From Actinomycetes bacterium (lineage in GTDB: Bacteria; Actinomycetota; Acidimicrobiia; Acidimicrobiales; Ilumatobacteraceae): 64,000 nt of DNA. The position numbers were made by a program, and so were the translations under genes. Below the pieces are notes generated by a model that worked only from the letters and a program-made list of their open reading frames with translations, was not told the DNA's origin and did not search any database. Every line of letters begins with the position of its first letter. Positions within the stretch are counted from its first letter, which is position 1. This document shows positions 6,269-57,763 of this stretch, piece after piece. The stretch is taken from positions 54,815 through 118,814 of the forward strand of contig JANYKS010000008.1 in NCBI GenBank assembly GCA_025358125.1. Direction: 5' to 3'.

Positions 6269-6289
6269 TGTGAGTTGGAGGGGTCAAGC

Positions 6290-8930: not shown

Positions 8931-9028
8931 ACCCATGCGATGACCGAGCCGCGGCGAGAGCGGTCGCTGCAGAGTTGTCCCTGTCACGGGAAGTCGCAGA
9001 GCCAAACCCCCGCTCGTAACAGTCGGCG

Positions 9029-11690: not shown

Positions 11691-11775
11691 GTCCACATCG
11701 TCGCGTCTGTTCGGGGCGTTGGTACGTCTCACTTTGGGTCAGCGCGGGACACGTCCGCGCCGTTAGGGTCGAACC

Positions 11776-12834
11776 GTGCGAGCCCTTCGATACCACGGTC
11801 GAGGTGATGTTCGGCTCGAGGAGCTGGCCGAACCCAGTCCAGGCCCGGGTGAGGTGCTCATCAAGGTCGCGTACAACGGGCTGTGTGGGAGCGACGTCCA
11901 CGAGTTCTACGAGGGACCGGTCGCGGCGACGATCGATCCACATCCGCTGACCGGATGCTCGGTGCCGTGCGTTCTCGGCCATGAGTTCTCGGGAACAGTG
12001 GTCGAGGTTGGTGCTGGCCTCGACGATCTCGCGATCGGTTCGGTGGTCGCCGTTGAACCGATCGAAACATGCGGAGTGTGTCCGCGTTGTGCCGCCGGTC
12101 GACGGCATCTCTGTCGGCGGATCGCCTTCCATGGCTACAACCGCGAAGGCGGCGGCCTGTCGGAACTGACGGTCGTTCGCCGTGACATGGTTCATGTTCT
12201 GCCCGCTGAGCTATCGGCCGTTCATGGGGCGCTCGTCGAGCCAATGGCCGTTGCCCGGCGAGCCGTCCGCCGCACCCGGGTCGAACGTGGCGACCTCGTC
12301 GTCGTCCACGGTGCTGGGCCGATCGGGCTCGGGGCGATTCTTGCCTTACGGGCGGATGGCGTCGAGGTAGTCGCCGTTGACCCGTCCTCCGAGCGAAGAT
12401 CAGCCGCCAGAGCGCTTGGCGCACGTGAGGCCGTAGATCCGTCCGATACGGACATCGTGTCGATGGTGCGCGACCTGACCGATGGTATCGGAGCAGCTGG
12501 CGCGATCGACGCCGCTGGCGCCTCCGCTGCTTTTGCAGCAGCCGTGCGAAGCACCCGGCCTGACGGCACCGTCGTCGTTGTGGCACATCACCACGAGCCC
12601 TTGCCATTGCGGTCTGGCTCGCTGATCTTTGGCGAGGTAACCGTCACTGGAAGTTCGATTTACGACACAAACGACTTCGCGTGGGTCATCAAAGCCATGC
12701 AGAGCGGCGCGTATCCGCTCGATGGTTGGATCACCACCATCGAACTCGACCGTGTCGTCGAGGACGGGTTCGAGCCGCTGCGTGCTCATAGCGTGAACAA
12801 AGTGCTCGTGCGCCTCGATCAACGCACGGCATGA
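11776..12834 (+). CDS. zinc-dependent alcohol dehydrogenase (MDR family, butanediol/sorbitol dehydrogenase-like)
   Basis: NGLCGSDVHEFYEGP, GHEFSG and the GAGPIGLG Rossmann motif. GTG start at 11776, divergent from the transketolase operon. Confidence 0.85.
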   Translation: MRALRYHGRGDVRLEELAEPSPGPGEVLIKVAYNGLCGSDVHEFYEGPVAATIDPHPLTGCSVPCVLGHEFSGTVVEVGAGLDDLAIGSVVAVEPIETCGVCPRCAAGRRHLCRRIAFHGYNREGGGLSELTVVRRDMVHVLPAELSAVHGALVEPMAVARRAVRRTRVERGDLVVVHGAGPIGLGAILALRADGVEVVAVDPSSERRSAARALGAREAVDPSDTDIVSMVRDLTDGIGAAGAIDAAGASAAFAAAVRSTRPDGTVVVVAHHHEPLPLRSGSLIFGEVTVTGSSIYDTNDFAWVIKAMQSGAYPLDGWITTIELDRVVEDGFEPLRAHSVNKVLVRLDQRTA

Positions 12835-39413: not shown

Positions 39414-40562
39414 TCAGACGAAGTGCTCCTGCAATGGAGCGAAGCCGTTGAATCCGACGGAGCTGTAGGTCGTTGTGTAGGCGCCGGCCGAGAGGATATC
39501 GACCATGTCGCCCTCGACGAGCGCGAGCGGTAACTCGTACGCACTCTTTTCGTACATCACGTCGGCGGAGTCGCATGTCGGACCGGCGATCGCGACGGGT
39601 CCGGTGAGGCCGCCGTCGTGGGGCGTGCGCAGGCGATATCTGATCGCCTCGTCCATCGTCTCGGCGAGGCCATGGAACTTGCCGCAGTCGAGGTACACCC
39701 AGCGCTCGCTGTCGAGCGGGGATCGTCGAGACACGAGAACGACCTCTGACCGCAAAACGCCGGCGTCGGCGACCATGTACCGACCCGGTTCGACCATCAC
39801 TTCGGCCAGCCCGCTCGGGAACCACTTTGCCAACGCGTCGCGCACAGCGCGGCCGTATGAGTCAATCGGCGGTGTGTGCTCGCGGTAGGTGCCGGGGAAG
39901 CCGCCCCCGAGGTTGACGAAAGTGGGGGTGGCGCCGCGGTTGCGGGCACGTTCCATCGAGTGGGCGACGACTTGCAGCGAATCGTCCCACGCGTCGACGT
40001 CGCGTTGTTGCGAGCCGACGTGGAACGAGACGCCGGACCCCATCCCGGCCTGGGTCGCGAGCACGAGCAGATTCTCGACCTCGGATGCATCGCAGCCGAA
40101 CTTGCGCGAGAGCGGCCAATCGGCGCCGCCACACTCGTGGCGGAGTCGCACGCACACCGAGGCGCCCGGGGCTACGTCGGCGACCTTGGCGAGTTCGGGC
40201 TCGCTGTCGACGGTGTAGCGGGTCACGCCGCAGGACGCCGCATAGGCGATGTCGCGCCGCTTCTTGATCGTGTTGCCGTACGAGATCTTGGCGGGAACGG
40301 CGCCAGCCTCGAGGCACCGGTCGATCTCGGCCGGACTGGCGACGTCGAAGGCCGAACCGAGACGAACGAGGCGTTCGATGATCGGCAGCGCCGGGTTGGC
40401 TTTAACGGCGTAGTAGACATCGGCCGCCGGGATGGCCTTGACGAGTTCGTGGTAGCGCTGCTCGACGAGGTCGACATCAACGACAACGAACGGCGTTGGA
40501 GCATTGGTCCCGCGCAGGAACGCATCGATCTTCGACAAGGCGTTGGAGGAGTGGTTGGTCAC
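39414..40562 (-). CDS. type III PLP-dependent decarboxylase (ornithine/lysine/DAP decarboxylase fold)
   Basis: PLP-lysine context YAVKANP, plus GGGFPGTY and GPTCDSAD; 382 aa. Confidence 0.85.
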   Translation of the reverse strand: MTNHSSNALSKIDAFLRGTNAPTPFVVVDVDLVEQRYHELVKAIPAADVYYAVKANPALPIIERLVRLGSAFDVASPAEIDRCLEAGAVPAKISYGNTIKKRRDIAYAASCGVTRYTVDSEPELAKVADVAPGASVCVRLRHECGGADWPLSRKFGCDASEVENLLVLATQAGMGSGVSFHVGSQQRDVDAWDDSLQVVAHSMERARNRGATPTFVNLGGGFPGTYREHTPPIDSYGRAVRDALAKWFPSGLAEVMVEPGRYMVADAGVLRSEVVLVSRRSPLDSERWVYLDCGKFHGLAETMDEAIRYRLRTPHDGGLTGPVAIAGPTCDSADVMYEKSAYELPLALVEGDMVDILSAGAYTTTYSSVGFNGFAPLQEHFV

Positions 40563-40724
40563 AGGTGCGACACCATACGGACATCTGCCGGTGAATGCGA
40601 CTGGTCGATCGGACAGTCAGTGACGGCTGTTTGGTCAATCAACCCGGCTGACTTCTCAGTTGAAAATTCGATCGATCGCCAGTAGCCGTGACGGGCGGTG
40701 CGATGGCGATCTGATCTGAACTGA

Positions 40725-41387
40725 TCAGTCGGGGAGCCGCCAGTCGATCGTCTGGCGGCTTCTCGTTGTCAGGGCGTCGTTGGCGCGGCTGAACGGCTTG
40801 CTCCCGGAGAAGCCATTGTGGGCAGACAACGGTGACGGGTGCGAGGATTCGATCACGACATGGCGCTCGGTGTCGATGAATGCCCGCTTCTTGCGGGCGT
40901 AGCCGCCCCACAGGATGAACACGACCGGTTCCGGTTTGTCGTTGACGACGCGGATGACCTGATCGGTGAAGGTTTCCCAGCCCTTTCCCTGATGGCTGCC
41001 CGCCTGCCCGGCGCGCACCGTGAGCGTCGCGTTGAGCAACAGCACACCCTGCGTAGCCCAGTGCTCGAGATTGCCGTGTCGCGGTGCTGGGATACCAAGG
41101 TCGCTCGTCAACTCCTTGTGGATGTTGGCGAGCGAGGGAGGGATCTGCACGCCTCTTCGCACCGAGAAACAGAGGCCGTGGGCTTGGTTCGCACCGTGAT
41201 ACGGATCCTGTCCGAGGATCATGACGCGGGTATTCGTGTACGAGGTGAGGTGGATCGCCGCGAAGACGTCGGGATCCGGCGGGTAGACCGTGTATCGGCT
41301 TCGTTCGACGCGAACGAAATCCTGCAGCGCGGCCCAGTAGGGCTTGTCGAATTCGCCCCGTAGCAGGGGGTTCCAATCGGTCGTCAT
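40725..41387 (-). CDS. ung: uracil-DNA glycosylase (family 1)
   Basis: ILGQDPYHG water-activating loop, GVLLLNATLTV, and HPSPLSA. Start ATG 41387 (MTTDWNPLL). Confidence 0.9.
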   Translation of the reverse strand: MTTDWNPLLRGEFDKPYWAALQDFVRVERSRYTVYPPDPDVFAAIHLTSYTNTRVMILGQDPYHGANQAHGLCFSVRRGVQIPPSLANIHKELTSDLGIPAPRHGNLEHWATQGVLLLNATLTVRAGQAGSHQGKGWETFTDQVIRVVNDKPEPVVFILWGGYARKKRAFIDTERHVVIESSHPSPLSAHNGFSGSKPFSRANDALTTRSRQTIDWRLPD

Positions 41388-41457
41388 CGGTGCCAGTGAT
41401 AGCACGCGAAAGGACCCGGCGGTGACGCCGGGTCCTTTCGGCTCGGGCTGTCGACGA

Positions 41458-42054
41458 TCAGTCGTCGTTGCCCTCGTTGCCGCCGTGATTGTCGCCGTCG
41501 TGATTGTCGCCACCGTGCTTGTCGTTGCCACGTGAGCCGCTGGTGCTCGAACCGTTGCCCGAACCGTGGTGATCGCCGCTGTCGGGTGTGTCGCCGGGAC
41601 CGACGTTGTCGGTGTTGTCGTCGTTCACATCGCCTTGGTCGGTGCCGTCAACTTCGCTGTTGTCGATCGTGTCGTCATCGACACCGTTGTGCTCGTCGAT
41701 GCTGCTCGAGCTGGAGGCAGTCGTCGGCGAAGCGCTGCTCGATGTCGAGTTGTCGACCGCGCCGTTGTCGTTCTCGCCGACTCTGTCCGGCGTCTCCGTA
41801 CCGGCGGTCGCGGCCCCAGCGGCGACGTTCGTCGTGCCCCCGGTGGCGACTGTCGTGCTCGATGGGATGGCGACTGTCGTGCTCGATGGGATGGTGACGG
41901 TCGTGCTTGATGGGATGGTGACGGCTGGAAGTCGGGCAGGCGAGCGATGATCGGAGCTGGCTGCGGACACGAGGCCGGCGGCGCCGAGCACAGCGGCCGC
42001 CGTGACGGCGATACCAATCGTCAGCCGCCGGTGTGTCTTTGCTGAGTATTTCAT
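41458..42054 (-). CDS. secreted acidic low-complexity protein with His/Asp/Gly-rich C-terminus
   Basis: ATG 42054 is preceded by GAGGAGAGG. Signal peptide ...AAVLGAAGLVSA. TIPSSTTV repeats x3. C-terminus GDHHGSGNG...NDKHGGDNHDGDNHGGNEGNDD. Confidence 0.6.
   Translation of the reverse strand: MKYSAKTHRRLTIGIAVTAAAVLGAAGLVSAASSDHRSPARLPAVTIPSSTTVTIPSSTTVAIPSSTTVATGGTTNVAAGAATAGTETPDRVGENDNGAVDNSTSSSASPTTASSSSSIDEHNGVDDDTIDNSEVDGTDQGDVNDDNTDNVGPGDTPDSGDHHGSGNGSSTSGSRGNDKHGGDNHDGDNHGGNEGNDD
41848..41919. repeat. 24-bp tandem repeat x3
   Basis: Three units: gactgtcgtgctcgatgggatggc, gactgtcgtgctcgatgggatggt, gacggtcgtgcttgatgggatggt. On the minus strand they encode TIPSSTTV x3. Confidence 0.85.
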
Positions 42055-42166
42055 GGGCCCTCTCCTCGGGGTTCGATGGACATCGATGACACGTTGCGGC
42101 GTCGTGAGAGGTTTGGCCGTCTTCAGAAAGCGATGTTCAGACCTCTTGCGCGATGTGAGCGGTGGT

Positions 42167-43060
42167 TCAGCCGCTGTGACCGCTACCGTCTCCGGGGCTT
42201 TGATCCGAACGGCCCGAACCGGTGTACGAAGTGGTGGGATCGGGGCGGTCGCCGGCAACGGTGGAGCCGGTGTCGCTGGACGCTCCGCCGTTCTCGTTGA
42301 CGGCATGGCTGAGGTGACCATCGCTGATGGTGACGTCGATGCTTGATTCGTGGGAATCGATGACGAACTTCACTCGAATGCGTGATGGCTCGTTCTTGTC
42401 CAACTCCAGTTGGTACCCGGCGTTGGCCTTGGTGCCGAGCAAGCTGAGCTGGTTGTCCTGCAGCCGAACGGTGATACTGCCGCCCTGGGACACGAAGGTC
42501 CGTACCTCGGTCGTTGAAACGGGTGTTGAGCTGCTCGGTGTGAAATCTGGTGCCGACGATGAGGGCGGTGAGGAGGAGGCGGTGCCCGTGCCCTTGGAGC
42601 CGGTGCCCTTCGAGCCGGTGCCCTTCGAGCCGGTGCCCTGGTTGCTCGACGACGTATTGCTCGACGGCGTGTCGCTCGGTGTCGGACTGATTGGCTCCAC
42701 TGCGCTGGTCGGCGGCGTCGTGGTTGCGGTCGTCTCGATCGTTTCCGTCGGCGCGGGCTCGGAGGACTCGGTGGTGGTGGGTTCCGGGCGTTGAACTCCG
42801 GTCGTCTCGGAGATCGCCTGATTTTGCTCGACACCGCTGTCGGCCGGGCTCAGCCTGTGCGAGTCGTTGCTGGTCACGGCGAACGCGCCGACGGCGAACA
42901 GGCAGGCGGCGCCGAGGCCGCCGAACACCGCCGCGGCGCGACGGCGCTTGGCAACGCGGACTTTTTGCAGAACGGTTGCGTACGCGATCTCGTCGTCGGC
43001 GTAATGCCCGCCGAGACGTTGCAGTTGATCGCGGAAACCGGGATCGTCGAATTCACTCAT
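42167..43060 (-). CDS. putative anti-sigma factor (single-pass membrane protein)
   Basis: The start overlaps the ECF sigma stop by 8 nt. Short cytoplasmic N-terminus, TM helix AAVFGGLGAACLFAVGAFAV, and an extracytoplasmic Ser/Thr/Pro-rich region with GTGSK x3. No ZAS motif. Confidence 0.55.
   Translation of the reverse strand: MSEFDDPGFRDQLQRLGGHYADDEIAYATVLQKVRVAKRRRAAAVFGGLGAACLFAVGAFAVTSNDSHRLSPADSGVEQNQAISETTGVQRPEPTTTESSEPAPTETIETTATTTPPTSAVEPISPTPSDTPSSNTSSSNQGTGSKGTGSKGTGSKGTGTASSSPPSSSAPDFTPSSSTPVSTTEVRTFVSQGGSITVRLQDNQLSLLGTKANAGYQLELDKNEPSRIRVKFVIDSHESSIDVTISDGHLSHAVNENGGASSDTGSTVAGDRPDPTTSYTGSGRSDQSPGDGSGHSG
42591..42640. repeat. 15-bp tandem repeat x3.3
   Basis: Units cccttggagccggtg, cccttcgagccggtg, cccttcgagccggtg, then ccctg. 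On the minus strand they encode GTGSKGTGSKGTGSK. Confidence 0.85.
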
Positions 43061-43547
43061 GGTCTGTCTCCTCAGCCTGAGCCCGCAATGATTTGCGTCC
43101 CTGGTGCAGATGGAATTTCACGGTGCCCTCAGAGATATGAAGGGTGGTGGCGATGTCGGCGATGGGTAGACCATCGACGTAGTAGAGGGCAAGCGACAGG
43201 CGTTGTTGGCGTGGAAGGTTGGCGAGCAGGTCGGCCGCACCATCGGTTTGTGGGGCAGGGGACTCAGCTGGCGGCTGACTCACCAATCGCTCCAGTGCTC
43301 GTCGTTTGCGGACATCGCTGCGATGGTCGTCGCGCAACTGGTTGATCGCGACGCGCCTGATCCAACCGACCGGATCGTCGTAGTGCATGATGCTCCGCCA
43401 GCGCATGTGGGCCTTAATGAACGCCTGCTGGACAGCGTCGGCAGCCCGCTGCTCGTCGCCGCATGCAACCGTGAGCGCGCGAACGAGACGCCCGTGGTGG
43501 GCGCGAAACAGCGATTCGAGATCCTCGACCACGCGAACATCATCCAT
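43053..43547 (-). CDS. ECF-type RNA polymerase sigma-70 family factor
   Basis: 164 aa from ATG 43547. Region 2 (AVQQAFIKAHMRW...WIRRVAINQLRD) and region 4 (RLSLALYYVDGLPIADIATTLHISEGTVKFHLHQGR). Confidence 0.85.
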   Translation of the reverse strand: MDDVRVVEDLESLFRAHHGRLVRALTVACGDEQRAADAVQQAFIKAHMRWRSIMHYDDPVGWIRRVAINQLRDDHRSDVRKRRALERLVSQPPAESPAPQTDGAADLLANLPRQQRLSLALYYVDGLPIADIATTLHISEGTVKFHLHQGRKSLRAQAEETDHE

Positions 43548-43625
43548 AAGGGCAATCAGCACCAAAGATGACACGCCACGGGGGCGCGATCGGTTTGGTT
43601 GACAGCCAACGTACAGTTCAACCCA

Positions 43626-44630
43626 ATGCCATTGCGTCGTTTGGCGTCCCTTCCCCGGTCCGTGCTGGCCACGCTTCCCACGCCGTTGGAGCGCGGGCCC
43701 GAACTCGGACACGGTCCTCGGCTGTGGATGAAGCGCGATGACCTGACCGGGCTTGGCGTTGGCGGCAACAAGGCGCGAAAGCTCGAGTTCCTGTGCGGCG
43801 AAGCGCTTGCACTCGGAGCCGACTGCCTGATCACGGTCGGTGCCGGCCAGTCGAATCACTGCCGGATGACGGCTGCCGCCGGTGCCCGACTCGGCCTCGA
43901 GACCCATCTCGTGCTGTCCGGCGACAAGCCGGATGTCCTCGTCGGCAATCAACTCCTGGCCAACCTCTTCGGAGCTCACCTGCACTTCACCGGCGTTTCA
44001 CCCTCGCACTGGGGCGCGCTCGAGATCGCCCGCGAAACGCTGACCGAGGAACTGGCTGCCGACGGCTTGCGGCCCCACTCGATTCCGATCGGTGGCAGCA
44101 CCCCGGTCGGCGCACTCGGATACGTCACGGCAATGATCGAGCTCTCCCAACAGTGCGAGGCTGCCGAGATCTCGCCCTCCGCGATCGTGTTCACCTCGTC
44201 GAGCGGTGGAACCCATGCCGGTCTCGTCGCCGGCAAGGCTCTGCTCCGCTCGATCGGGCGCACGGTGCCTGACATCTTGGCCATCGGCGTTGCCAAGGGT
44301 GTCGTGATGGGCATGCCCGACATCGCCGGCCTTGCGGCCGAGACACTCGCGCTGCTCGACAGCACCGGTGTCGTCGATGACGACATCGAGATCGACGCGC
44401 GCTGGCTCGGTGACGACTACGCCGAGCCCACCCGGGCCGGTGACGAGGCCATCGCATGGGCAGCACGGCGCGGTGGTTGGGTGCTCGACCGCACGTACTC
44501 CGGCAAGGGTTTTGCCGGTTTTCTCGGCAACGCCGCGCAAGGCCGGTGGGGCGCTGACGAAGATGTGATCTTCATTCACACGGGTGGCCTCCCGGCGGTC
44601 TTCGCGCCGGGAGGTCTCCCGGCCCCGTAG
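43626..44630 (+). CDS. D-cysteine desulfhydrase / ACC deaminase family PLP enzyme
   Basis: LPTPLE...WMKRDDLTGLGVGGNKARKLEFL with the PLP-lysine context. ATG 43626 preferred over the upstream TTG 43599. Confidence 0.85.
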   Translation: MPLRRLASLPRSVLATLPTPLERGPELGHGPRLWMKRDDLTGLGVGGNKARKLEFLCGEALALGADCLITVGAGQSNHCRMTAAAGARLGLETHLVLSGDKPDVLVGNQLLANLFGAHLHFTGVSPSHWGALEIARETLTEELAADGLRPHSIPIGGSTPVGALGYVTAMIELSQQCEAAEISPSAIVFTSSSGGTHAGLVAGKALLRSIGRTVPDILAIGVAKGVVMGMPDIAGLAAETLALLDSTGVVDDDIEIDARWLGDDYAEPTRAGDEAIAWAARRGGWVLDRTYSGKGFAGFLGNAAQGRWGADEDVIFIHTGGLPAVFAPGGLPAP

Positions 44631-46514: not shown

Positions 46515-47675
46515 CTATCCCCCGAAGTTGCGGTACAGGCGCTCCAATGGGCCGACGCCCGCGACGCGGTGCCACAAGCCGCCGAGCATGATGGCGAACA
46601 CCCAGAACGCGGCGCTCAAGACCAGGGCCGTGTCCAACCCGGTCGGGCGTACGAGATGCCACCAGTGCACGACCGCGTTGAACACGAGAATGTGGCAGAC
46701 GTACAGAGTCAGGGTCATCTGCCCGGCGTGGCGAAGCAGCTGCGTCGCGCCCGCGTGCGCAAACCGATCGGCGAGCCAGGCGAGCGCGCAGAACGACACG
46801 AGAGACGACCCGAGCGTGCCGATCGTGTAGAGCAGCCCCCGGTCGAATGGTCCGGTCGAGAGCAGTATCCGCCACCGTCGCGCCGAGTGATCGTTACTGA
46901 CGAAGTTGTCGGTTGCCCAACGCAGTCCGATGTAGTTGACGAGATACGTGACCGCGAACATCGACAGGCCGCAGAAGATGATGCGCGCGCGTCGTTGCTT
47001 CGAAAGCGGCAGGAACCGGCCGATCGCGATGCCAGCGCACAAGAACGCGAGCCACGGCAGCAGCGGGTGGGTGTAGCCGACGAACGTGCGCAGGACAAGA
47101 TTGCGGGGCGATGTCACGGCCGGTTCCAGCCACGATGTGTCGTGGCCCTTCAGTTCCTGGGCGATGCGGAACCACGCGATGCCGGCGCCTGCGAGCGCCG
47201 CACACGTGCCGAGCAGCGCGATCCAGCGCAGTCGGAGCGTGAACAGCAACGCGGCGACCATGAAGAACGCGCCGTAGTACACCAAGATGGTTCCGTTCCA
47301 GATCCATTCGATCAGCAGTCCAGATGAGTAGAGCAGCAGGCCGCGCCGGGCGAGTCGCCAGCGGTCCGAGCGGATGGCCGCGATGTCGCCCGACAACCTC
47401 GAGCGGTTCGTCATCAGGGTCACGCCCATGCCGGCGACGAGCACGAAGACGCTCGCGAAGCGGGTGCTCAGCGGGCCGTCGAGCGGATCGAAGACCCGTT
47501 CCGCGTACGAGCGTTTCGGGCTGTGACGTCTACCGTTCAGGTAGCCGTGGTAGTTCAGGGTGACGACGCCGATCAGCGCGACGGCACGGGCCACGTCCAG
47601 CCCCGGCAGGCGCGGCGCGCCGGTTCGGTTCGTCTCGCCCGAGGGGGCCGAGGCGGCACAGGTCACGTCATTCAT
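46515..47675 (-). CDS. DUF418/DUF1624-type (acyltransferase-3-like) polytopic membrane protein
   Basis: RLPGLDVARAVALIGVV N-terminus and about 10 hydrophobic segments. The start overlaps the stop of the upstream gene by 8 nt. Confidence 0.6.
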   Translation of the reverse strand: MNDVTCAASAPSGETNRTGAPRLPGLDVARAVALIGVVTLNYHGYLNGRRHSPKRSYAERVFDPLDGPLSTRFASVFVLVAGMGVTLMTNRSRLSGDIAAIRSDRWRLARRGLLLYSSGLLIEWIWNGTILVYYGAFFMVAALLFTLRLRWIALLGTCAALAGAGIAWFRIAQELKGHDTSWLEPAVTSPRNLVLRTFVGYTHPLLPWLAFLCAGIAIGRFLPLSKQRRARIIFCGLSMFAVTYLVNYIGLRWATDNFVSNDHSARRWRILLSTGPFDRGLLYTIGTLGSSLVSFCALAWLADRFAHAGATQLLRHAGQMTLTLYVCHILVFNAVVHWWHLVRPTGLDTALVLSAAFWVFAIMLGGLWHRVAGVGPLERLYRNFGG

Positions 47676-48624
47676 CGACCCATTCCAGCTCGTCGATCGA
47701 CGTCGAGATCAGCGGACGCTGTACGTCGACCCGATCCGTGATCCCCGGACATCGCCCACCGTTCGGCACGAACAACATCGACGTGTGCATGTGCGCTGGC
47801 TCGACCAGCAGCATTCGTTCGCGTCCGAAGTGAAACGGGCTCAAACCGTTTTCTAGTGGGCGCACGCCGTGCGCCGAGCCGGCCGCGACGAGCACGAGTT
47901 GTCCGTCAGCCGGCACGATCGTTGCCCTGTAGCCGACGGCACTGCCGGCGCTGACGGATTGGACGTCGAGCACGTCGGCGCTGAGGTGGAGCAGCGATTT
48001 GTCGCCGTGCCAGAGCGCGGTGCCGCTGCGAATCCGAAAGCTCCGCTCGGGGTGTTCGTTGCCCAAGCGGGCGTACGTCCCCTGGTCGAGATGGCTGACC
48101 GCGATCGCGAGCCCCGGATCCAGGTGCGCCAGCCATGCGGTGACCTCTGCCTCGTGGTCGGCCTGCGATCCAGCGAGGGGTAGATGCAGCGCGTAGGAGA
48201 TCGCCGTACACCCAGCGGCCGTCACGGCCGCCGCGAGCGACTCCAGGTTGCTCGGCGCGACCCCGTAGCGGCGCATGCTCGACCTCAGCTTGAGGATCAC
48301 GTCACCCGTCCAAAGCTGGGCGCGCAGTGCTTCGACGTGGGCGATGCTGCCAACAGTCAGTACGGCGCCGACCGGTAGGTCGGCCGCGGTGCCGATGTGC
48401 GGGGTGAGCACGATCGCAGTCCGGTCAGCAGGAACGTCGCAGGCTTCGTACACGGTGCCGACGGCGATATGAGTGCCGAGGCGGGCTGCGATCGGCATCA
48501 GCACTGTGCGGCCGAAGCCATAGCCGTTTCCCTTCACAACCGGAATCAGACCGGGCAGTGAGTCAGCGACCGCCTCCACCCTGTGATGCCACGCCTGGCG
48601 GCGAACGCTGAGACGCAGACCCAT
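47668..48624 (-). CDS. alanine racemase N-terminal-domain (fold-type III PLP) protein
   Basis: PVVKGNGYGFG lysine context, as in the alanine racemase family; 318 aa. Confidence 0.6.
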   Translation of the reverse strand: MGLRLSVRRQAWHHRVEAVADSLPGLIPVVKGNGYGFGRTVLMPIAARLGTHIAVGTVYEACDVPADRTAIVLTPHIGTAADLPVGAVLTVGSIAHVEALRAQLWTGDVILKLRSSMRRYGVAPSNLESLAAAVTAAGCTAISYALHLPLAGSQADHEAEVTAWLAHLDPGLAIAVSHLDQGTYARLGNEHPERSFRIRSGTALWHGDKSLLHLSADVLDVQSVSAGSAVGYRATIVPADGQLVLVAAGSAHGVRPLENGLSPFHFGRERMLLVEPAHMHTSMLFVPNGGRCPGITDRVDVQRPLISTSIDELEWVDE

Positions 48625-48714
48625 AGGCCAACGACGGTAGTTGCCAGCGAGGCGACCACCCTCGCACCTTATTCCCGAGTTGTTTGGTCGGGATTATCGT
48701 CGTACGCTCTGGGT

Positions 48715-49224
48715 ATGCGTTCTTTGTTCCGATTCCCCAATCCGGTGAACGAGACATCGGCCCGTCTCGTCGCGGCCGGTGTCGTGCTGCTGTGTGTCGC
48801 GTTCGTCGTCATTCGGCAGTGGTGGTTGCTGATCCCTCTGGCATACGGGTTCGTCGCGAGGGTGCTCGCCGGCCCGACGCTGAGCCCGCTCGGGCAGGTC
48901 GCCACTCGCTTGCTGACCCCCCGGCTGAGCGTTGAGCATCGCCTCGTGCCCGGGCCGCCGAAGCGATTCGCGCAGGGTATCGGCGCGACGCTGTCGGTCG
49001 GCGCGCTCGTCTCGTGGTCACTTGGCGGTCATGGCGTTGCGGTCGTGCTGGTCGTGGCAATCGCAGTCGCGGCGACACTCGAGTCGGTGTTCGCGGTGTG
49101 TCTCGGCTGCCTGATCTTCGCCCGACTGATGCGCTGGGGTGTGATCCCTGCAGATGTCTGCGAGTCGTGCAACGACATCTCCCGGCGTCTTGGGGCATCC
49201 GCCGCTCGCTCATCGGTCGCGTGA
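48715..49224 (+). CDS. DUF4395-like membrane protein
   Basis: FPNPVNETSAR...GPPKRFAQGIG...CLGCLIFARL pattern. ATG 48715 lies inside the longer track ORF. Confidence 0.65.
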   Translation: MRSLFRFPNPVNETSARLVAAGVVLLCVAFVVIRQWWLLIPLAYGFVARVLAGPTLSPLGQVATRLLTPRLSVEHRLVPGPPKRFAQGIGATLSVGALVSWSLGGHGVAVVLVVAIAVAATLESVFAVCLGCLIFARLMRWGVIPADVCESCNDISRRLGASAARSSVA

Positions 49225-50598
49225 GGCCGGTGAACGTGGCTTCGGCCACGACGTCAGATCGGGCGTGAGCGCGTCGAGTGACCGCTCGCGGAGCGCGCCG
49301 CTCGCGAGGCCGGTGCCGTAGGCGAGGTCGTCGAGCAATCGCAACGCGACATAGCTCGCCGGATTCAGTTGCGGCCGCTTGGTGAACCAATCGAACGTCG
49401 CTGGAGCGACCGCTGCCAGCAGCACAACGCGGCGGCAGCGCTTCGAGACGACCGCCGCGACGGCAGCGAGCGGCCACCAGGCGCGGGTGACGGCCGACGC
49501 GAGCGAGCGGCCGGCAAAGGCGTGCCCGAGTCCTGCGAGGCGAATGGCCTCGCGCTTGCCGTCGGGAATGTCGCGCAGCTTGCGGGCCAGCAGCGCGGTC
49601 GTCGCCACCGCGATCCCTCCACCGATGACCGGCCATCCCAGCACCGCGATGAGCCACGATGCCGCGCTCCAGCCGCTGACGCGCACCGGGGCGAGGTTGC
49701 CGGGATGGGCGCTCGCCAAGGGCGCTGCCGACGTGCCGTACCTATATCGTTGCCCGAGCCAGGTGCGAACAGTGGGTCGGGGTTCGTGGTGCACAGTGAC
49801 GCCCGGTTCGTAGCGGACGCGATGTCCGGCCTCGTCGAGTCGCCAGACGAGATCTACGTCCTCGCCGACCCGCAGTGATTCGTCGAAGCCGCCGATCGAG
49901 CGGACGGCGTCCACCCGCGCGACGACGGCAGCCGATGGCACGTAGCCGACACGCGTGCCGGCACGGACTCGGGCGGGCCGGCGTCCGAGGTCGAGCGGCG
50001 AGTGGAGAAATTCGTAGCGTGCGAGCACCGATCGGCCCGTCGCGCTCTCGACGCGGGGAGCAACGAGCGCAACGCGCGGATCGGCGAAGTGGGCGAGCAG
50101 CGCGGTGAGCCAACCCGATGACACCTCCACGTCCGTGTCGACGAATGCGACGAGCGGCGTGAAGACCTGGGCGAGGCCCGTCGACCTCGCCGCTGCCGGC
50201 CCGCCGTTGACCCCGCGCCGAACGACCGTCGCCCCGGCGATGTCGGCGATCGGTACCGGCGACGCATCGTCGACGATCACGACGGCCGCTGCGTCCGGGC
50301 ACTCGTCGACGATCTGGCGCAGCCGTGCTTGCGACGTGCGATAGGCGGGGATCACGACCGTCACGGCTGCGATCGGTTGGCCGGCCGTGTAGCTGGGGTG
50401 GATCACCCCGGCATCGAGCAGTCGGTCGACGAGTGCCTGGGTCGCGGTGGTTTCCGGAAGCGACTTGCCATGCTCGATGCAGTCGATCACGGCGGCGCCG
50501 GCCTCGGTGAGGCGGATCAGTTTGAGCGGTGAACCACCGATCAGGACGCGTCCGCCACCGACCCGGCGGACCGACGCGTCCAACGCCAGGCTCCTCAC
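49210..50598 (-). CDS. mftF: mycofactocin-system glycosyltransferase MftF-like (GT2 with N-terminal peptide-binding-like domain and C-terminal membrane region)
   Basis: N-terminus ...RVLIGGSPLKLIRLTEAGAAV. GT2 core VVIPAYR...VIVDDAS...FVDTDV. Hydrophobic C-terminal third. The GTG 50598 start overlaps the mftE stop (GTGA). The 190-aa N-terminal extension in the track ORF overlaps mftE and was rejected. Confidence 0.65.
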   Translation of the reverse strand: MRSLALDASVRRVGGGRVLIGGSPLKLIRLTEAGAAVIDCIEHGKSLPETTATQALVDRLLDAGVIHPSYTAGQPIAAVTVVIPAYRTSQARLRQIVDECPDAAAVVIVDDASPVPIADIAGATVVRRGVNGGPAAARSTGLAQVFTPLVAFVDTDVEVSSGWLTALLAHFADPRVALVAPRVESATGRSVLARYEFLHSPLDLGRRPARVRAGTRVGYVPSAAVVARVDAVRSIGGFDESLRVGEDVDLVWRLDEAGHRVRYEPGVTVHHEPRPTVRTWLGQRYRYGTSAAPLASAHPGNLAPVRVSGWSAASWLIAVLGWPVIGGGIAVATTALLARKLRDIPDGKREAIRLAGLGHAFAGRSLASAVTRAWWPLAAVAAVVSKRCRRVVLLAAVAPATFDWFTKRPQLNPASYVALRLLDDLAYGTGLASGALRERSLDALTPDLTSWPKPRSPASRDR

Positions 50599-51311
50599 GT
50601 GGACCACGCAGTCACCTGCCGGACGAGATCGTCGATCAACACCGCCAGCATCCGGGAGCCCTCGGCGGCTGACGCACCGGCGGGATCGCCGAGCACCCCG
50701 TTCGGACTCACCGCGAGAACCCCACCGGAGCGCAGATCGTCGAGCAGTTGTTGCACGGGCTCGGTCCGCCCGGCCACCGCGGCCTCGAGCCGAACGAGTG
50801 ACGGATCGATCGCGAGCATCAGCGACGTCTCGCTGCGTCCGGCATGGGCATCGCCGGCGGCGAGGTTGGGCCACCAACTCATCACCCGTCGTCCCTCGTC
50901 GCGCAGGGTTACGAGAGCACCGTTCACTGGCGCGAGGTTGCCGCCGTGGCCGTTGACGAACACGACACCGTCGCTCCAATCCGCAGATCGGACCAACTCG
51001 ACGAGCACTCGTTCGAACACTGCCGTGCCGATCGACAGAGTGCCGGGGAAGCCCCGATGTTCGCCACTGGCCGTGATCCCGAGTGGCGGTGACACAAGCG
51101 TGCGGGCGTTGCTCGCCGCCAACCCGGCGGCGACCGCCTCGGCGATGCGGGTGTCGGTGTCCAGCGGGAGATGGGGCCCGTGCTGCTCGCACGATCCGAT
51201 CGGCACGACCAGCAGCGTCCTGCCTCCGCCCCCCGAGCCGTCGCCGCCCGACGAGTCGAGGTCCGTCCAGGTGGCTTCACCCAGTAGACGGTGTCGGCCT
51301 CGACGCTTCAT
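50595..51311 (-). CDS. mftE: creatininase-family peptidase, MftE-like
   Basis: LLVVPIGSCEQHGPHLPLDTDTRIAEAVA, VNGHGGN and HAGRSETS are creatininase-fold metal-binding contexts. It lies immediately upstream of the MftF-like gene. The start shares 1 nt with the etfB stop (TGATG). Confidence 0.65.
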   Translation of the reverse strand: MKRRGRHRLLGEATWTDLDSSGGDGSGGGGRTLLVVPIGSCEQHGPHLPLDTDTRIAEAVAAGLAASNARTLVSPPLGITASGEHRGFPGTLSIGTAVFERVLVELVRSADWSDGVVFVNGHGGNLAPVNGALVTLRDEGRRVMSWWPNLAAGDAHAGRSETSLMLAIDPSLVRLEAAVAGRTEPVQQLLDDLRSGGVLAVSPNGVLGDPAGASAAEGSRMLAVLIDDLVRQVTAWST

Positions 51312-52141
51312 CAGGGCAGGTAACCCCAGTCGCGAAGCGCGGAGAGGATCCGCTCGGCAGCTTCCGCCGGCGGGAGTACTACCAGCTCACCGCGTGCCCC
51401 GGACGCGACCGGCGCGAGCAATTCCTTGACGCGATCGAGCGCTGTCTCGCCACTCGGTGGCGCGAGCGCCCGCGGTCGCGGTCGATACGGGCGGGAAACT
51501 CCGGCGCCACTCGTCTCACCGATCGCGACCGCTGTTGCGCACGCGACCTCGATCTCGTGTCGGCCCAGCAGCGCCCGCAGCGGCGCACGGCGCAGCATCG
51601 CGGTCGAGCCCTCGACGGAGAGCACCGTCGGACCGGAGATGGCGAGGCGCTCGCGGCGCCCGCCGTCGAGCCGGCGCAGTACGTCGAAGCGCACACCATC
51701 GGCGGCCGAGCCCGACGCCAGATCGACGGCGACGAGACCGAGTGCCTGGGGGTACCCGAGTTCATCGGCCAGAAAGGCCGGGACGGAGCCGGTGCCACGG
51801 TCGAACGAGGCGTCGCCGCACCACACGAGCGAGGCACCGCCCAGCTGAGCTGCGAGGCAGGCCGCGACGACCCGGCTCGGGGCGCCGAACGGTACGTCGA
51901 TCCTGACGGCGCGGGTCGCCCCAGCCGCGAGCGCATCGCGCAGCACGCCGTCGGCTTGCGATGGTCCGACGGTGATCGCAAGCACGTCGTCGCCTCCGGG
52001 GCCGCTGCACCGCAACGCCCATTCGAGAGCGGCCTGATCGGCCGCTGACACGCCACCGAAGCGCGCGTCAGGCTCCGCGGGCAGGCCGAGCGCGTCCGCC
52101 TCCGGACGCTGATCGACCCATTTCAGGCAGGCCGCGATCAT
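51311..52141 (-). CDS. etfB: electron transfer flavoprotein beta subunit (FixA/EtfB)
   Basis: 276 aa from ATG 52141 (MIAACLKWV...). AITVGP, LVWCGDASFDRGTGSVPAFLADELG are typical EtfB features. Confidence 0.8.
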   Translation of the reverse strand: MIAACLKWVDQRPEADALGLPAEPDARFGGVSAADQAALEWALRCSGPGGDDVLAITVGPSQADGVLRDALAAGATRAVRIDVPFGAPSRVVAACLAAQLGGASLVWCGDASFDRGTGSVPAFLADELGYPQALGLVAVDLASGSAADGVRFDVLRRLDGGRRERLAISGPTVLSVEGSTAMLRRAPLRALLGRHEIEVACATAVAIGETSGAGVSRPYRPRPRALAPPSGETALDRVKELLAPVASGARGELVVLPPAEAAERILSALRDWGYLP

Positions 52142-52464
52142 GTGCGCCGGAAGACCACTCCGTGGCCGCCCTCCGGGTAGTTCCAGGTGATGGCGCCCTC
52201 GCGGTTGCAGACCATGTAGCACGTACCGCACTCGAAGCACTGCTCGTAGTTGAACAGGATGCCGCCGTCGCTCGTCGGAACGAACAGGTTGGCCGGGCAG
52301 GCAACGATGCATTCCCGCGTGCTGCAGTCGGCACACACCTTGGCGTCGACGACGATGTGCGGCTGCGGGTGGACCTTGAACGTGGCGGTGCCGATGCGGT
52401 CCTCGAAGGAGATCTCCGGCCACATCGGATCGCGCTCGATGGGCGGCGGCGGGCCGAACATCAT
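52138..52464 (-). CDS. fixX: ferredoxin-like protein FixX
   Basis: 108 aa. KVCADCSTRECIVACPANLF...EQCFECGTCYMVC is the typical FixX pattern. ATGA overlaps on both sides. Confidence 0.85.
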   Translation of the reverse strand: MMFGPPPPIERDPMWPEISFEDRIGTATFKVHPQPHIVVDAKVCADCSTRECIVACPANLFVPTSDGGILFNYEQCFECGTCYMVCNREGAITWNYPEGGHGVVFRRT

Positions 52465-53762
52465 CCGAAACTCCGCAACCCCGTGATGCCGTCACGGATC
52501 AGGTCGCGGCGGCGAATGCCGATCCGCTTGCGTTCCTGCTTGACGATGCGGCGGACGCCGGGCTTCGGCTCGGGGTTGTCCACCCGGAACATCCGCTCGG
52601 CAACGGATGTCGCCAGCTCGGGGTACAGGTGCTGCACGCGGTCCGACAGTACGAGTTCCGGCGCCCGGCGCAGCTTGCGATGGTCCTTGAGCACGAACGT
52701 CGCCTCGAGTCGGCGCTGATAGCCGGCGAGTCCCTTGGCCGACGTGTCACCGCTGCGCAGTGCCTCGACGACGGCCTGGGCCGCGTACATGCCGCTTGCC
52801 ATCGCGAAGTTCACGCCCTCCAACCAGATCCCGGCTGCCAGGCACAGCGCAGCGGCGTCACCGGCGATCAGCAGGCCGTCACCGATGAGCTTCGGGATCA
52901 TCGCCAGGCCGGCCTCCGGGATCAGATGCGCGGAATATTCCTTCAGCTCGCCACCCTCGACGAGCGGCGCGATCGCGGGGTGTTGCTTCATGCTCGCGAT
53001 GAGTTCTTCCGGCCGCTTCTTCTGCGCAGCCAGCTTGGGCAGCTTCAGCACGAGACCGACGGCGAGCGTGTCGAGGTTGGTGTAGATGAACCCGCCGCCG
53101 TTGATTCCGTTCGTGCAGCCGATGATCTCGATGTCGACGCCGTCGGTGCCGCGTACCCCGAAACGTTCGTCGATCACGTGCTTTGGCAACGCAAGTGTCT
53201 CTTTGACACCGAGCGTGTAGTTCGCAGCATCGACCTCTCCGTACAGGCCCTCCTGTTTGGCGAGGAAGCTGTTGACGCCGTCACACGCGATGACGACGGA
53301 GGCCGTCAACTCGCCATCGGGGCGATCTGCGGTGACGCCGACGACACACCCGGTCGAATCGTGGAGCAGGCCCGTGACCGTGGTGCTGCAGATCAACTCG
53401 GCGCCCGCGGCGACGGCCTTGTCGGCGAGCCAGTTGTCGAAGTCCGGGCGGAACGCCGTGGCCCCGTTGTACGGCGGCGCGCCCCACGTCTGGCTGCGGA
53501 AATCGATCGTGAGCGCCTTGGTGTCGGTCATGATCATCGTCGAGCGGCGGGTGACCCAGCGCTGGATCGGCGCCTCGAGCCACCAATTGGGGATCAGCTG
53601 ATCGAGGATGCGCGGGTAGACCACGCCGCCGTACATGTTCTTGCTGCCAGGGAACGGGCCGCGTTCGAGCAGGATCACCGACTTGCCGGCGCGGGCGAGC
53701 TCTATCGCCGCGCACGAACCGGCCGGGCCGGCACCGACGACGATCGCGTCGACGTCAGGCAT
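52461..53762 (-). CDS. fixC: FAD-dependent ETF-quinone oxidoreductase-like protein FixC
   Basis: DAIVVGAGPAGSCAAIELARAGKSVILLERG FAD motif. About 433 aa from ATG 53762. Confidence 0.85.
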   Translation of the reverse strand: MPDVDAIVVGAGPAGSCAAIELARAGKSVILLERGPFPGSKNMYGGVVYPRILDQLIPNWWLEAPIQRWVTRRSTMIMTDTKALTIDFRSQTWGAPPYNGATAFRPDFDNWLADKAVAAGAELICSTTVTGLLHDSTGCVVGVTADRPDGELTASVVIACDGVNSFLAKQEGLYGEVDAANYTLGVKETLALPKHVIDERFGVRGTDGVDIEIIGCTNGINGGGFIYTNLDTLAVGLVLKLPKLAAQKKRPEELIASMKQHPAIAPLVEGGELKEYSAHLIPEAGLAMIPKLIGDGLLIAGDAAALCLAAGIWLEGVNFAMASGMYAAQAVVEALRSGDTSAKGLAGYQRRLEATFVLKDHRKLRRAPELVLSDRVQHLYPELATSVAERMFRVDNPEPKPGVRRIVKQERKRIGIRRRDLIRDGITGLRSFG

Positions 53763-54681
53763 CGGATGCCATTGCAGGACGGGTCGCGACGCGCTCGAGG
53801 AGTTCGGCGATGACTGCATTGGCGTCGCTGACGATGGCGAGGTCGGACAGTTGCATCATCGGGCAGCGCGGGTCGATGTTGACGCTGATGATGTGCTCGG
53901 GTTGGCCGAGGCCGCTCGTGTGCTGCACCGCACCGCTGATCCCGAACGCGAGGTACAGCTTCGGGTCGACGACGACGCCGGTGGTGCCGATCTGGCGGTC
54001 GTGGTTGACCCAACCGCGATCGGTGATGACCCGAGTAGCGCCCATCGATGCATCGAGCGCGCGGGACAGCGTGGCGAGTTCCGCGAAGATCTCCGCCGTT
54101 TGCAAGCCGGCGCCGCCGCCGAGTATCCGTTGCGACTCGGCCAGATCCATCGTCGCGGCGTCGGGGTTGAGTACCTCGACAACCTGTGCATCGGCTGCCT
54201 CCGCATCGAACTCGGCGCTCAGCATGGTGACCAACGGCTCCGCGCTCGACGAAGCCGGGTCGGCGCCCCGGACGCCCGGCTGCAACGTTGCAACGAAGGC
54301 CGTGACGGGCCGGACCTCGTTGATGACGAGCCCACCGTTGCGGGCAAGTTCGACACGATGCGGCGCGACCGAGATCGCTCCGGCGAACAGCTCGCGCTGC
54401 AGCAAAACGGCGAGCCGCGGCGCCAGGTCGCGGCCGTCTGGCGAAGCCGGCAAGACGATCTGATCCTCACCGCCGAGGTGCCGGAGGAGCGCGCCGGCCC
54501 ACGCGGCAGGCGCGTAACCTGACGCCTCGATTGCAGTGACCTCGACTGCGTGGCCCGCCAGTTCGGTTGCGGCGGCCGCGCTGCCCGAGCCGATGAGGAG
54601 CACCCGCCCGCCGCACTCGTCGACGGTCTCGATTCCCCCGGCCGGCAGGACACCTTCTCGAACTGGCACGACAGCAAGCAT
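53755..54681 (-). CDS. etfA: electron transfer flavoprotein alpha subunit (FixB/EtfA)
   Basis: C-terminal FAD-binding region RILGGGAG...DRQIGTTGVVVDPKLYLAFGISGAVQH. Start ATG 54681. Confidence 0.85.
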   Translation of the reverse strand: MLAVVPVREGVLPAGGIETVDECGGRVLLIGSGSAAAATELAGHAVEVTAIEASGYAPAAWAGALLRHLGGEDQIVLPASPDGRDLAPRLAVLLQRELFAGAISVAPHRVELARNGGLVINEVRPVTAFVATLQPGVRGADPASSSAEPLVTMLSAEFDAEAADAQVVEVLNPDAATMDLAESQRILGGGAGLQTAEIFAELATLSRALDASMGATRVITDRGWVNHDRQIGTTGVVVDPKLYLAFGISGAVQHTSGLGQPEHIISVNIDPRCPMMQLSDLAIVSDANAVIAELLERVATRPAMASDA

Positions 54682-54834
54682 CGGATGCAGGTTACGAGAC
54701 CACAGGGCGAGTAGGGAAGTGGAATCGGAACGAGGCCCGACGTCCGACGTGGGGGACTGCCCCGGCAATGTCGTGGCCGACGCGATATCGCAAGGGCAGT
54801 CGTCGCCGGACGGCGCGGATGGCACACTGACGAG

Positions 54835-57373: not shown

Positions 57374-57763
57374 TCAGGCCCGGCCCATGATGCGGTCGAC
57401 CTGGATCTCGATCGCCACCCGGTCGGGGCGCTCTCCCGGCTGGCGATAGCGGGCAGCGTATCCCTCGGCCGCTGCCGTCACGCTCTCCGGGTCGGTCGCG
57501 AGGCGGACGGTTCCCTCCAGCGTCAGCCAGCGGCGACGGTCGATCTGGCACACGGCTGCGCGCCCGCCACGAGCCGCATTGCGAGCCTTGACCGCCGACG
57601 CGAACGTGATGACGCGTACGAGATGCTCGGCCGCCGAATAGCTGAAGCCGACGGCCACCACATGGGGAGTGCCGTCGGCGCGCATTGTGGTGAGGGTTGC
57701 GAGATGGCGCTCGGCCAAGAACGCGAGCACCTCGTCGCCAGGGTCAGCGAGATCGATTGTCAT
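57374..57763 (-). CDS. PPOX-class (pyridoxamine 5'-phosphate oxidase-like), probably F420-dependent, small oxidoreductase
   Basis: 129 aa. FLAERHLATLTTMRADGTPHVVAVGF is typical of the PPOX class found in actinobacteria. Confidence 0.65.
   Translation of the reverse strand: MTIDLADPGDEVLAFLAERHLATLTTMRADGTPHVVAVGFSYSAAEHLVRVITFASAVKARNAARGGRAAVCQIDRRRWLTLEGTVRLATDPESVTAAAEGYAARYRQPGERPDRVAIEIQVDRIMGRA

Follow-up and report, generated by a model that had tools for sequence, protein, structure and literature searches.

A mycofactocin-associated electron transfer flavoprotein and FixCX module in a predicted operon with mftE and mftF in an uncultured member of the Acidimicrobiia: a candidate link to respiration

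Introduction

How a bacterium that makes the recently defined redox cofactor mycofactocin without possessing MftG would return the cofactor's electrons to its respiratory chain is the question raised by a six-gene unit on the minus strand (49210-54681) of a 64-kb stretch of 65% G+C DNA from an uncultured member of the Acidimicrobiia (contig JANYKS010000008.1; the whole stretch is referred to below as the window). The unit joins genes for the two subunits of an electron transfer flavoprotein (ETF), and for the FixC and FixX proteins, to the mycofactocin maturation genes mftE and mftF. A link between mycofactocin and respiration was shown in 2025, and for MftG only. In the study concerned 311 genomes carried mftC and 235 carried mftG, 25% of the mftC genomes being without mftG, and membranes of a delta-mftG mutant retained a residual mycofactocinol oxidation; the authors inferred the existence of alternative dehydrogenases (PMC11778925). 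Nor are MftD, MftE and MftR universal in mycofactocin systems (Haft 2011, PMC3023750). The ETF/FixCX module considered here is a concrete, clonable candidate for both the MftG and the MftD gaps, and it is spread through the Acidimicrobiia, an abundant freshwater and soil lineage, and is also present inside polyketide clusters of Streptomyces. The association of an ETF with mycofactocin is already catalogued by annotation pipelines (NCBIfam/RefSeq), and the window, with the arrangement usual in Acidimicrobiia, is a further example of this catalogued cluster type, of value as a lead.

The operon and its products

Proteins were assigned to families with NCBIfam profiles and their curated cut-offs, together with Pfam domains and matches in the PDB. 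Both ETF subunits score above the cut-offs of models dedicated to mycofactocin-associated ETFs: EtfA reaches 370.7 bits against NF038209 (mft_etfA; cut-off 240) with the full profile covered, and EtfB 218.3 bits against TIGR04503 (mft_etfB; cut-off 200). An initial annotation of this DNA, made from the letters alone, had pointed to RefSeq names such as 'mycofactocin-associated electron transfer flavoprotein' and had proposed that any such models be run, and these names do exist. Its reading of the two distal genes as mftE and mftF is borne out in the same way. MftE scores 278.3 bits against TIGR03964 (cut-off 172; residues 11-237 on profile positions 2-221 of 228) and 190.7 bits against Pfam Creatininase, and MftF 421.5 bits against TIGR03965 (cut-off 280; residues 5-449 on positions 2-466 of 467), with GT2 Pfam domains present. 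On these scores the four proteins belong, at equivalog level, to MftE, to MftF and to the two families of mycofactocin-associated ETF. Both mft genes are under purifying selection like their neighbours, the ratio of non-synonymous to synonymous polymorphism among seven strain copies, in all of which the open reading frames (ORFs) are intact, being 0.33 for mftE and 0.33-0.35 for the pair, similar to the values for the ETF genes.

The six genes (Table 1) are chained by stop/start overlaps, and all five junctions are as the initial annotation had described them. The etfA stop ends at 53755 and the fixC ATG lies at 53762, giving an overlap of 8 nt; fixC/fixX and fixX/etfB each meet in an ATGA (52461-52464 and 52138-52141); etfB and mftE have one base (51311) of a TGATG in common; and mftE and mftF overlap as GTGA at 50595-50598 if mftF starts at GTG 50598. 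Independent gene calls on six near-identical metagenome contigs (L001-L006) place the mftF start at GTG 50607, which yields a 13-nt overlap with mftE, and agree with the tabulated lengths of the other five proteins. Since short overlaps between same-strand neighbours are common in this genome, the overlaps by themselves amount to an indication of an operon, and the conserved gene order is stronger evidence that the linkage exceeds chance; taken together, six co-oriented, overlapping genes in an order kept in both Acidimicrobiia and Streptomyces indicate a single operon. Terminator-like sites inside it show no excess over chance (one seen, 2.1 expected). The promoter is presumed to lie in the sole non-coding gap upstream of the operon, although this 153-bp region gave no match to a sigma-70 consensus or to Rfam, and at the other end the 3' end of mftF overlaps a convergent DUF4395 gene. 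The order of the fix genes, B-C-X-A where fixABCX is usual, had been remarked on at the outset; it is real, and is a hallmark of the mycofactocin-associated ETF family.

Table 1. The six-gene unit and its upstream region (positions in the window)
Feature	Position	Strand	Length or remark
etfA (FixB-like), mycofactocin-associated ETF alpha subunit	53755..54681	-	308 aa
fixC, FAD-dependent ETF:quinone oxidoreductase subunit	52461..53762	-	433 aa
fixX, ferredoxin-like 2x[4Fe-4S] subunit	52138..52464	-	108 aa
etfB (FixA-like), mycofactocin-associated ETF beta subunit	51311..52141	-	276 aa
mftE, creatininase-fold peptidyl-dipeptidase	50595..51311	-	238 aa
mftF, GT2 mycofactocin glycosyltransferase	49210..50607	-	465 aa from GTG 50607, 462 aa from GTG 50598
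presumed promoter region	54682..54834	divergent	153-bp gap separating etfA from a family III CoA-transferase gene

The ETF subunits themselves form a deep, separate branch. Generic ETF models give 121 bits (cut-off 600) and 45 bits (cut-off 350), the generic ETF beta models not exceeding 45 bits with EtfB. EtfA has a Pfam ETF_alpha domain, binding flavin adenine dinucleotide (FAD), at 95 bits, and its top PDB matches, bifurcating and canonical ETF alpha chains near-tied at about 100 bits, place it at an equal distance from the two kinds. The PDB matches of EtfB are remote, namely the bifurcating EtfB of A. fermentans (4KPU_B, 47.6 bits) and the beta subunit of the trimethylamine dehydrogenase ETF (1O94_C, 44 bits).

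FixC and FixX resemble the corresponding subunits of the Thermotoga maritima EtfABCX complex. FixC matches 7KOE_C over nearly its whole length (E=1.7e-74, 254 bits, residues 4-416 on 5-426), with porcine ETF:quinone oxidoreductase (2GMH) next, and the Pfam domain ETF-QO_FixC_C is recorded on the identical genes of related contigs; the fixX gene overlaps its stop codon. It scores 356 bits against the NCBIfam E. coli-type FixC subfamily, under the cut-off of 610, and is therefore not placed in that subfamily. FixX, a ferredoxin-like protein of 108 residues that is 100% identical in the six related contigs, has 7KOE_D as its best match (E=5.5e-17), all eight of its cysteines aligning with those of 7KOE_D in two [4Fe-4S] motifs, CxxCxxxxCxxxCP and CxxCxxCxxxC; against the NCBIfam FixX equivalog it scores 57 bits (cut-off 166). 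Both proteins are thus homologues of the quinone-reducing arm of EtfABCX. Since in T. maritima the two clusters of EtfX form part of the high-potential path, which runs from ET-FAD through the iron-sulphur (FeS) clusters and QR-FAD to menaquinone (PMC10734219), FixC and FixX would in effect be a split ETF:quinone oxidoreductase that could be useful without bifurcation.

Conservation of the module

Whether the synteny of fixBCXA with mftEF recurs, a check proposed in the initial annotation, was examined in one genome per GTDB species. At least 397 relatives of EtfB were found, of which the best 80 (L007-L086) were compared locus by locus, together with four clusters on Streptomyces plasmids. 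All of the best 80 are metagenome-assembled genomes (MAGs), labelled Acidimicrobiia/Ilumatobacteraceae or just Actinomycetota/Actinomycetes, with a few evident mislabels. Downstream linkage was counted in loci with at least 6 kb of 3' flank (n=54) and upstream linkage in those with at least 6.5 kb upstream of etfA (n=42). Every locus long enough to show it has the order etfA-fixC-fixX-etfB, and mftF, together with mftE, lies 3' of etfB on the same strand in 52 of the 54 informative loci. The genes etfB and mftE are not tightly coupled everywhere: of 72 loci, 40 have a gap of at most 150 nt and 21 one that exceeds 1 kb, the inserted genes encoding an MFS exporter, a TetR regulator, a lipoprotein, a pyrroloquinoline quinone (PQQ)-like beta-propeller protein or a two-component system. 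The idea that mftABCD might be hidden in these inserts was rejected, as they carry no mft genes. Upstream of etfA an FadH/OYE family oxidoreductase 2 gene (OYE2) is present in 29 of 42 loci, with a distance of 3-24 nt between the OYE2 stop and the start of etfA in seven of them, and mftC is found within about 7-10 kb in just five, a scarcity that extends to contigs of 0.5-4.7 Mb. Where clusters are split, OYE1, the FadH/OYE family oxidoreductase 1, goes with mftABC and OYE2 with the ETF genes.

Among the candidates scored, EtfB homologues fell into 1825 clusters, the named ones being all Acidimicrobiia and one already bearing the name 'mycofactocin-associated ETF beta subunit'. The window EtfB is at most 65% identical to its best 80 relatives among the GTDB species representatives, and at most 67% in all databases searched. 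The species of the window apparently has no representative in GTDB r232, since no relative exceeds 65% EtfB identity; the best FixC match is 88%. Exact copies are limited to metagenome contigs in ENA and Logan (BUSI22-1 samples, ERZ2731xxxx, SRR23617167), and for the proteins encoded in the rest of the window exact look-ups led to short Logan contigs alone.

The six window genes appear to be the conserved core of a larger cluster that is seen complete in one Acidimicrobiia MAG (L026), where a single strand carries mftA-mftB-mftC-OYE1 (TIGR03996)-F420-dependent LLM oxidoreductase-OYE2 (TIGR03997)-etfA-fixC-fixX-etfB-mftE-mftF. The cluster, in the form mftABC-OYE1-OYE2-etfA-fixC-fixX-etfB-mftE/F, is also annotated by the NCBI pipeline PGAP on the Streptomyces plasmids NZ_CP102515, NZ_CP107797, NZ_CP107787 and NZ_CP016083, all four with the order etfA-fixC-fixX-etfB. 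OYE2 overlaps etfA in three of them, the fourth listing no OYE2 gene; etfB and mftE overlap by 4 nt in NZ_CP107787; and the orthologues of S. yangpuensis are 40-68% identical to the window proteins. Neither mftD nor mftG was found locally in L026 or the Streptomyces clusters, and no MftD homologue was detected, by tblastn or by the signature SNHG[GA]RQ, within about 10 kb of the ETF-type loci (L007-L086, L100-L104). The MftD-type clusters on plasmids of Mycolicibacterium chubuense and Thermomicrobium roseum have no ETF and no OYE genes. Judged within flanks of about 10 kb, this looks like mutual exclusion of MftD and the ETF/OYE set. The pattern as a whole, with ETF almost always beside mftE and mftF, OYE2 often beside ETF, OYE1 beside mftABC and mftD never nearby, leads to testable predictions.

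Three of the four Streptomyces plasmids (NZ_CP107797, NZ_CP016083 and NZ_CP102515) carry the ETF-type cluster between type I polyketide synthase genes, with methylaspartate mutase, AMP-binding, pyridoxal phosphate (PLP)-dependent and FAD-monooxygenase genes alongside, which suggests that the mycofactocin system serves a secondary-metabolite pathway there. In the window itself the region 3' of mftF (46515-49224) holds a convergent DUF4395 gene, a gene for an Ala_racemase_N-like PLP-barrel protein and one for a membrane protein of HGSNAT/DUF418 acyltransferase-like type, with an 8-nt overlap between the second and the third. These three genes, which have no NCBIfam match, keep their place next to mftF in 47-55 of the 80 loci from Acidimicrobiia, and may join the system, for example in modification of the sugar chain, or reflect core synteny.

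The missing mft genes

The initial annotation had drawn attention to the lack of mftA, mftB, mftC and mftD near the operon. As far as it can be tested, the absence holds for the 64 kb: there is no short ORF ending in GVY, no CX3CX2C motif in a credible ORF and no FMN_dh signature, and a loose FAD-binding pattern (GMC N-terminal) matches FixC alone. No match in the window was obtained by tblastn with MftA, MftB, MftC, OYE1, F420-dependent oxidoreductase and OYE2 proteins from a related Acidimicrobiia genome, nor with two MftD proteins. An NCBIfam scan of 20 further window ORFs returned no mycofactocin family, the matches being to acyl-CoA synthetases, a Baeyer-Villiger-type monooxygenase, BudC, an amidase and others. 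The absence is no oddity of the window: mftC is linked in just five of 42 relatives, long contigs included, and separation from mftABC is thus normal for the lineage. Related organisms hold stand-alone Zn-dependent alcohol dehydrogenase (Zn-ADH)-mftA-mftB-mftC or mftABC-OYE1 loci.

Attempts to assign an MftC to the genome of the window failed. Three candidates from the same projects (P0234, P0238 and P0239, the last from the same sample, ERZ28573535) were rejected on composition: the G+C content of their contigs is 59.6-62.5% and their tetranucleotide correlation with the window 0.94, where chunks of the window against the rest give 0.977-0.991 and values of up to 0.98 are seen for several other species; a fourth (P0132) came from an unrelated project. 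Stand-alone mftA-mftB-mftC loci with Zn-ADH upstream or OYE1 downstream, and with no mftD, mftE or mftF at the locus, were seen in L106 (9745-11134), L087 (9624-11131) and L089 (9618-13115), which derive from the same metagenome projects and in one case from the sample of a window contig. Their G+C content (59.6-62.5% for L106 and L087, 74% for L089) marks them as different organisms.

A proposed electron path

Several MftG-less organisms listed in the MftG study come from the lineage of the window or carry the ETF-type cluster. Its table gives MftC without MftG for Aquihabitans (two strains), Iamia and Ilumatobacter coccineus, and likewise for S. yangpuensis, through the protein WP_257858222 (PMC11778925), which is encoded by the MftC gene inside the ETF-type cluster of that species. 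The absence of MftG, the likeness of FixC and FixX to the EtfABCX arm and the abutment of OYE2 on etfA in relatives make it plausible, on sequence grounds, that ETF/FixCX acts as an electron outlet, or inlet, of the mycofactocin pool. The energetics are favourable, with a drop from about -255 mV, the E0' of mycofactocinol (PMC11778925), to -74 mV (PMC10734219).

From the gene identities and synteny we infer a dedicated and probably non-bifurcating chain, OYE2 to ETF to FixX/FixC to menaquinone, which would replace MftG and perhaps support a substitute for MftD, and to this reading we assign about an even chance of being right. ETF would be a dedicated one-electron carrier, accepting electrons from OYE2, a mycofactocin-specific flavoenzyme predicted to contain flavin mononucleotide (FMN) and a [4Fe-4S] cluster, the gene for which would lie elsewhere in this genome. 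Electrons would leave the ETF FAD by way of the two [4Fe-4S] clusters in FixX, reach the FixC FAD and go on to menaquinone. In this manner mycofactocinol would be re-oxidised into the respiratory chain, the job done in mycobacteria by MftG, and the same chain may also take electrons from an oxidative deamination, catalysed by OYE1, that stands in for MftD. Being transcribed along with mftE and mftF, the outlet would be made together with the cofactor.

A number of observations weigh against this chain. The window contains none of OYE2, OYE1 and mftABC, and the contigs that carry MftC in the same samples come from organisms whose composition differs. T. roseum lacks MftG and has no ETF gene within about 12 kb of its mft cluster, so that ETF is not the sole answer for MftG-less systems. 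OYE1 and OYE2 are nearer to 2,4-dienoyl-CoA and naphthoyl-CoA reductases than to amine dehydrogenases. The EtfB nucleotide loop, described below, appears to fit neither the canonical nor the bifurcating signature, and neither would predict its cofactor content. The characterised FixCX-associated ETFs are all bifurcating and NADH-dependent. Finally, a literature search found no paper linking mycofactocin with an electron transfer flavoprotein or citing the accessions of the models.

A wider scheme is advanced tentatively, as a possibility rather than an expectation: that mycofactocin has a second architecture with neither MftD nor MftG, in which OYE1, accompanying mftABC, would form the redox-active keto-amide by O2-independent oxidative deamination and OYE2, accompanying the ETF genes, would re-oxidise mycofactocinol, both feeding one dedicated ETF-FixCX-menaquinone chain that in the lineage of the window would be kept as an autonomous operon with mftE and mftF.

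Alternative readings

The module could instead be a genuine bifurcating or confurcating EtfABCX, in which EtfB would hold a second FAD that oxidises NADH or mycofactocinol and sends one electron through FixX/FixC to menaquinone and the other to a low-potential acceptor. The latter might be a ferredoxin or flavodoxin able to activate the radical-SAM enzyme MftC, or, with the system running in reverse as an inlet, mycofactocin itself. Every characterised ETF with FixC and FixX belongs to group 2, which is bifurcating, and the top PDB match of EtfB is a bifurcating protein; but EtfB scores nearly as well against the non-bifurcating trimethylamine dehydrogenase ETF. By our own arithmetic, a split of two electrons at -255 mV to -74 and about -436 mV is thermodynamically possible. 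The ETF genes follow mftC in full clusters, but this linkage is weak (5/42) beside the near-universal linkage to mftE and mftF.

The nucleotide-binding loop of EtfB was compared with published signatures of the ETF groups. Bifurcating ETFs have the EtfB motif DGDTAQ, with Thr94 and Thr97 as ribose ligands holding the second FAD, and a T94A/T97A double mutant binds adenosine monophosphate (AMP) in place of FAD; canonical (group 1) ETFs have D-D-D-S-N-Q, with Asn in 98%, an extra Asp and AMP bound (PMC8958531). The mycofactocin-associated family has a motif of its own, C-G-D-x-S-x-D-R-G-T/S-G-S-V-P. In the 28 members compared D-R-G-T/S-G-S stands where bifurcating ETFs have DGDTAQ, the acidic third residue being lost in 27 and the Gln in all 28, and the position of Thr97 is Val, Leu or Ile, which argues against bifurcation. 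On the other side, the loop retains Thr/Ser (100% Thr in bifurcating ETFs), the position of Thr94 is Ser in 24 of 28, where the alignment is uncertain, and the canonical signature is absent, its Asn being replaced by Gly in 28/28 and its extra Asp by Arg in 26/28. Because the motif fits neither group, bifurcation by the mycofactocin-associated ETF is regarded as possible but somewhat less likely, and the full bifurcating scheme is judged unlikely.

In a purely biosynthetic role the module would take the place of MftD without needing O2. An FMN/FeS dehydrogenase of the OYE family would oxidatively deaminate 3-amino-5-[(4-hydroxyphenyl)methyl]-4,4-dimethyl-2-pyrrolidinone (AHDP), released by MftE, to premycofactocin, with electrons passing through ETF to quinone, and the cofactor would be recycled by something else. 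In the published pathway the MftD step falls directly between those of MftE and MftF, and it is mftE and mftF that the ETF genes directly adjoin. The lack of MftD in some mycofactocin systems, referred to above, is in keeping with such a role, as is the mutual exclusion of ETF/OYE and mftD in every cluster inspected, although the flank search extended to about 10 kb and MftD might exist elsewhere in the genomes. OYE1 and OYE2 fall in the three-domain FMN/[4Fe-4S] superfamily of the trimethylamine and histamine dehydrogenases, enzymes that oxidise amines and use ETF; the best match of OYE1 and OYE2 is 2,4-dienoyl-CoA reductase, of the same superfamily. Set against this are the large outlay that a four-subunit respiratory link would represent for the small flux of cofactor synthesis, the separation of OYE1 with mftABC from OYE2 with ETF when clusters split, which suggests two jobs, and the lack of any OYE gene in the window. 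As a complete account it appears distinctly improbable.

Two further readings have very little probability. That this is an ordinary ETF and ETF:quinone oxidoreductase of fatty-acid or amino-acid catabolism which merely adjoins mftE-mftF is suggested by the family III CoA-transferase and 3-hydroxybutyryl-CoA dehydrogenase genes divergent from etfA, but these neighbours are kept in about five of 80 loci, as against 52 of 54, and the Streptomyces plasmids, for mftE/F, and the generic ETF models fall far under their cut-offs. Equally remote is the notion of mftE and mftF as orphans in a genome without mftABC, decaying or acting on another substrate as a creatininase-fold hydrolase and a GT2 enzyme; no mftA, mftB or mftC lies in the 64 kb and no MftC candidate can be assigned to this organism, but both proteins are well above their equivalog cut-offs, the ORFs are intact with the pN/pS given above, a split mftABC is the rule in relatives, and stand-alone mftABC loci exist in related organisms.

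Other features of the window

Three other regions of the window were noted, which as a whole has no Rfam family and no tRNA. Positions 4229-12834 have the look of an acetoin/2,3-butanediol-type catabolic cluster, with a BudC-like dehydrogenase (331 bits, cut-off 270), a split transketolase-like E1 pair and a Zn-dependent alcohol dehydrogenase; the C-terminus of a 660-aa regulator nearby resembles sigma-54-dependent activators such as DhaR, a type that is to our knowledge unusual for an actinobacterium. Close to the operon, at 57374-57763, is a gene for an F420-dependent PPOX-class oxidoreductase (TIGR03618, 91 bits, cut-off 79), and since the L026 cluster includes an F420-dependent LLM oxidoreductase, F420 and mycofactocin systems coexist in the lineage. 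The strongest negative AT and positive GC skew of the window (-0.12 to -0.13 and +0.07 to +0.10) is found at 40001-44000, and Thr/Ser-rich ORFs lie at 40725-41950.

Comparison with known systems

The EtfABCX/FixABCX complexes of T. maritima (7KOE) and Azotobacter vinelandii have the same four-subunit make-up and the same menaquinone-directed FeS-FAD arm as the proposed module. They differ in gene order (A-B-C-X, as against B-C-X-A in the window) and in setting, which in the window is mycofactocin and not nitrogen fixation or anaerobic energy conservation; moreover, the window ETF subunits form a deep branch (EtfB 35-48 bits) in which the bifurcating-FAD signature is not conserved.

Trimethylamine dehydrogenase, the classical enzyme that reduces ETF, is not known to have FixCX in its operon in Methylophilus methylotrophus W3A1. 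It has been crystallised in complex with its ETF (PDB 1O94), and offers a precedent for an FMN/[4Fe-4S] three-domain dehydrogenase that gives single electrons to a dedicated ETF. OYE1 and OYE2 of the full clusters are homologous to this dehydrogenase family (OYE2 164-175 bits) and its ETF beta is the second-best PDB match of the window EtfB, but OYE1 and OYE2 are nearer to 2,4-dienoyl-CoA reductase and the window has no such dehydrogenase.

With MftG of mycobacteria (PMC11778925) the module would have its role in common, the transfer of electrons from reduced mycofactocin into the respiratory chain, and in their occurrence the two are complementary in the few genomes that can be checked. MftG is a single GMC-family flavoenzyme, unrelated to a four-subunit ETF/ETF:quinone oxidoreductase that probably needs a separate dehydrogenase, and the role has been demonstrated for MftG, whereas for ETF/FixCX it is inferred. 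The canonical Mycobacterium cluster mftABCDEF(G) (Rv0691A-Rv0697; Haft 2011, PMC3023750) has mftE and mftF that are orthologous to those of the window by the equivalog models, in the same E-F order. The window lacks mftD and mftG, mftABC are not linked to its operon, and the ETF/FixCX module occupies the place where mftD precedes mftE.

The closest counterparts are the RefSeq ETF-type clusters on Streptomyces plasmids, which have ETF subunits above the same cut-offs, the same internal order and the same mftE/mftF companions, their FixC and FixX carrying generic names only. The window differs from them in having no adjacent mftABC, OYE1 or OYE2, and in its host, an uncultured member of the Acidimicrobiia.

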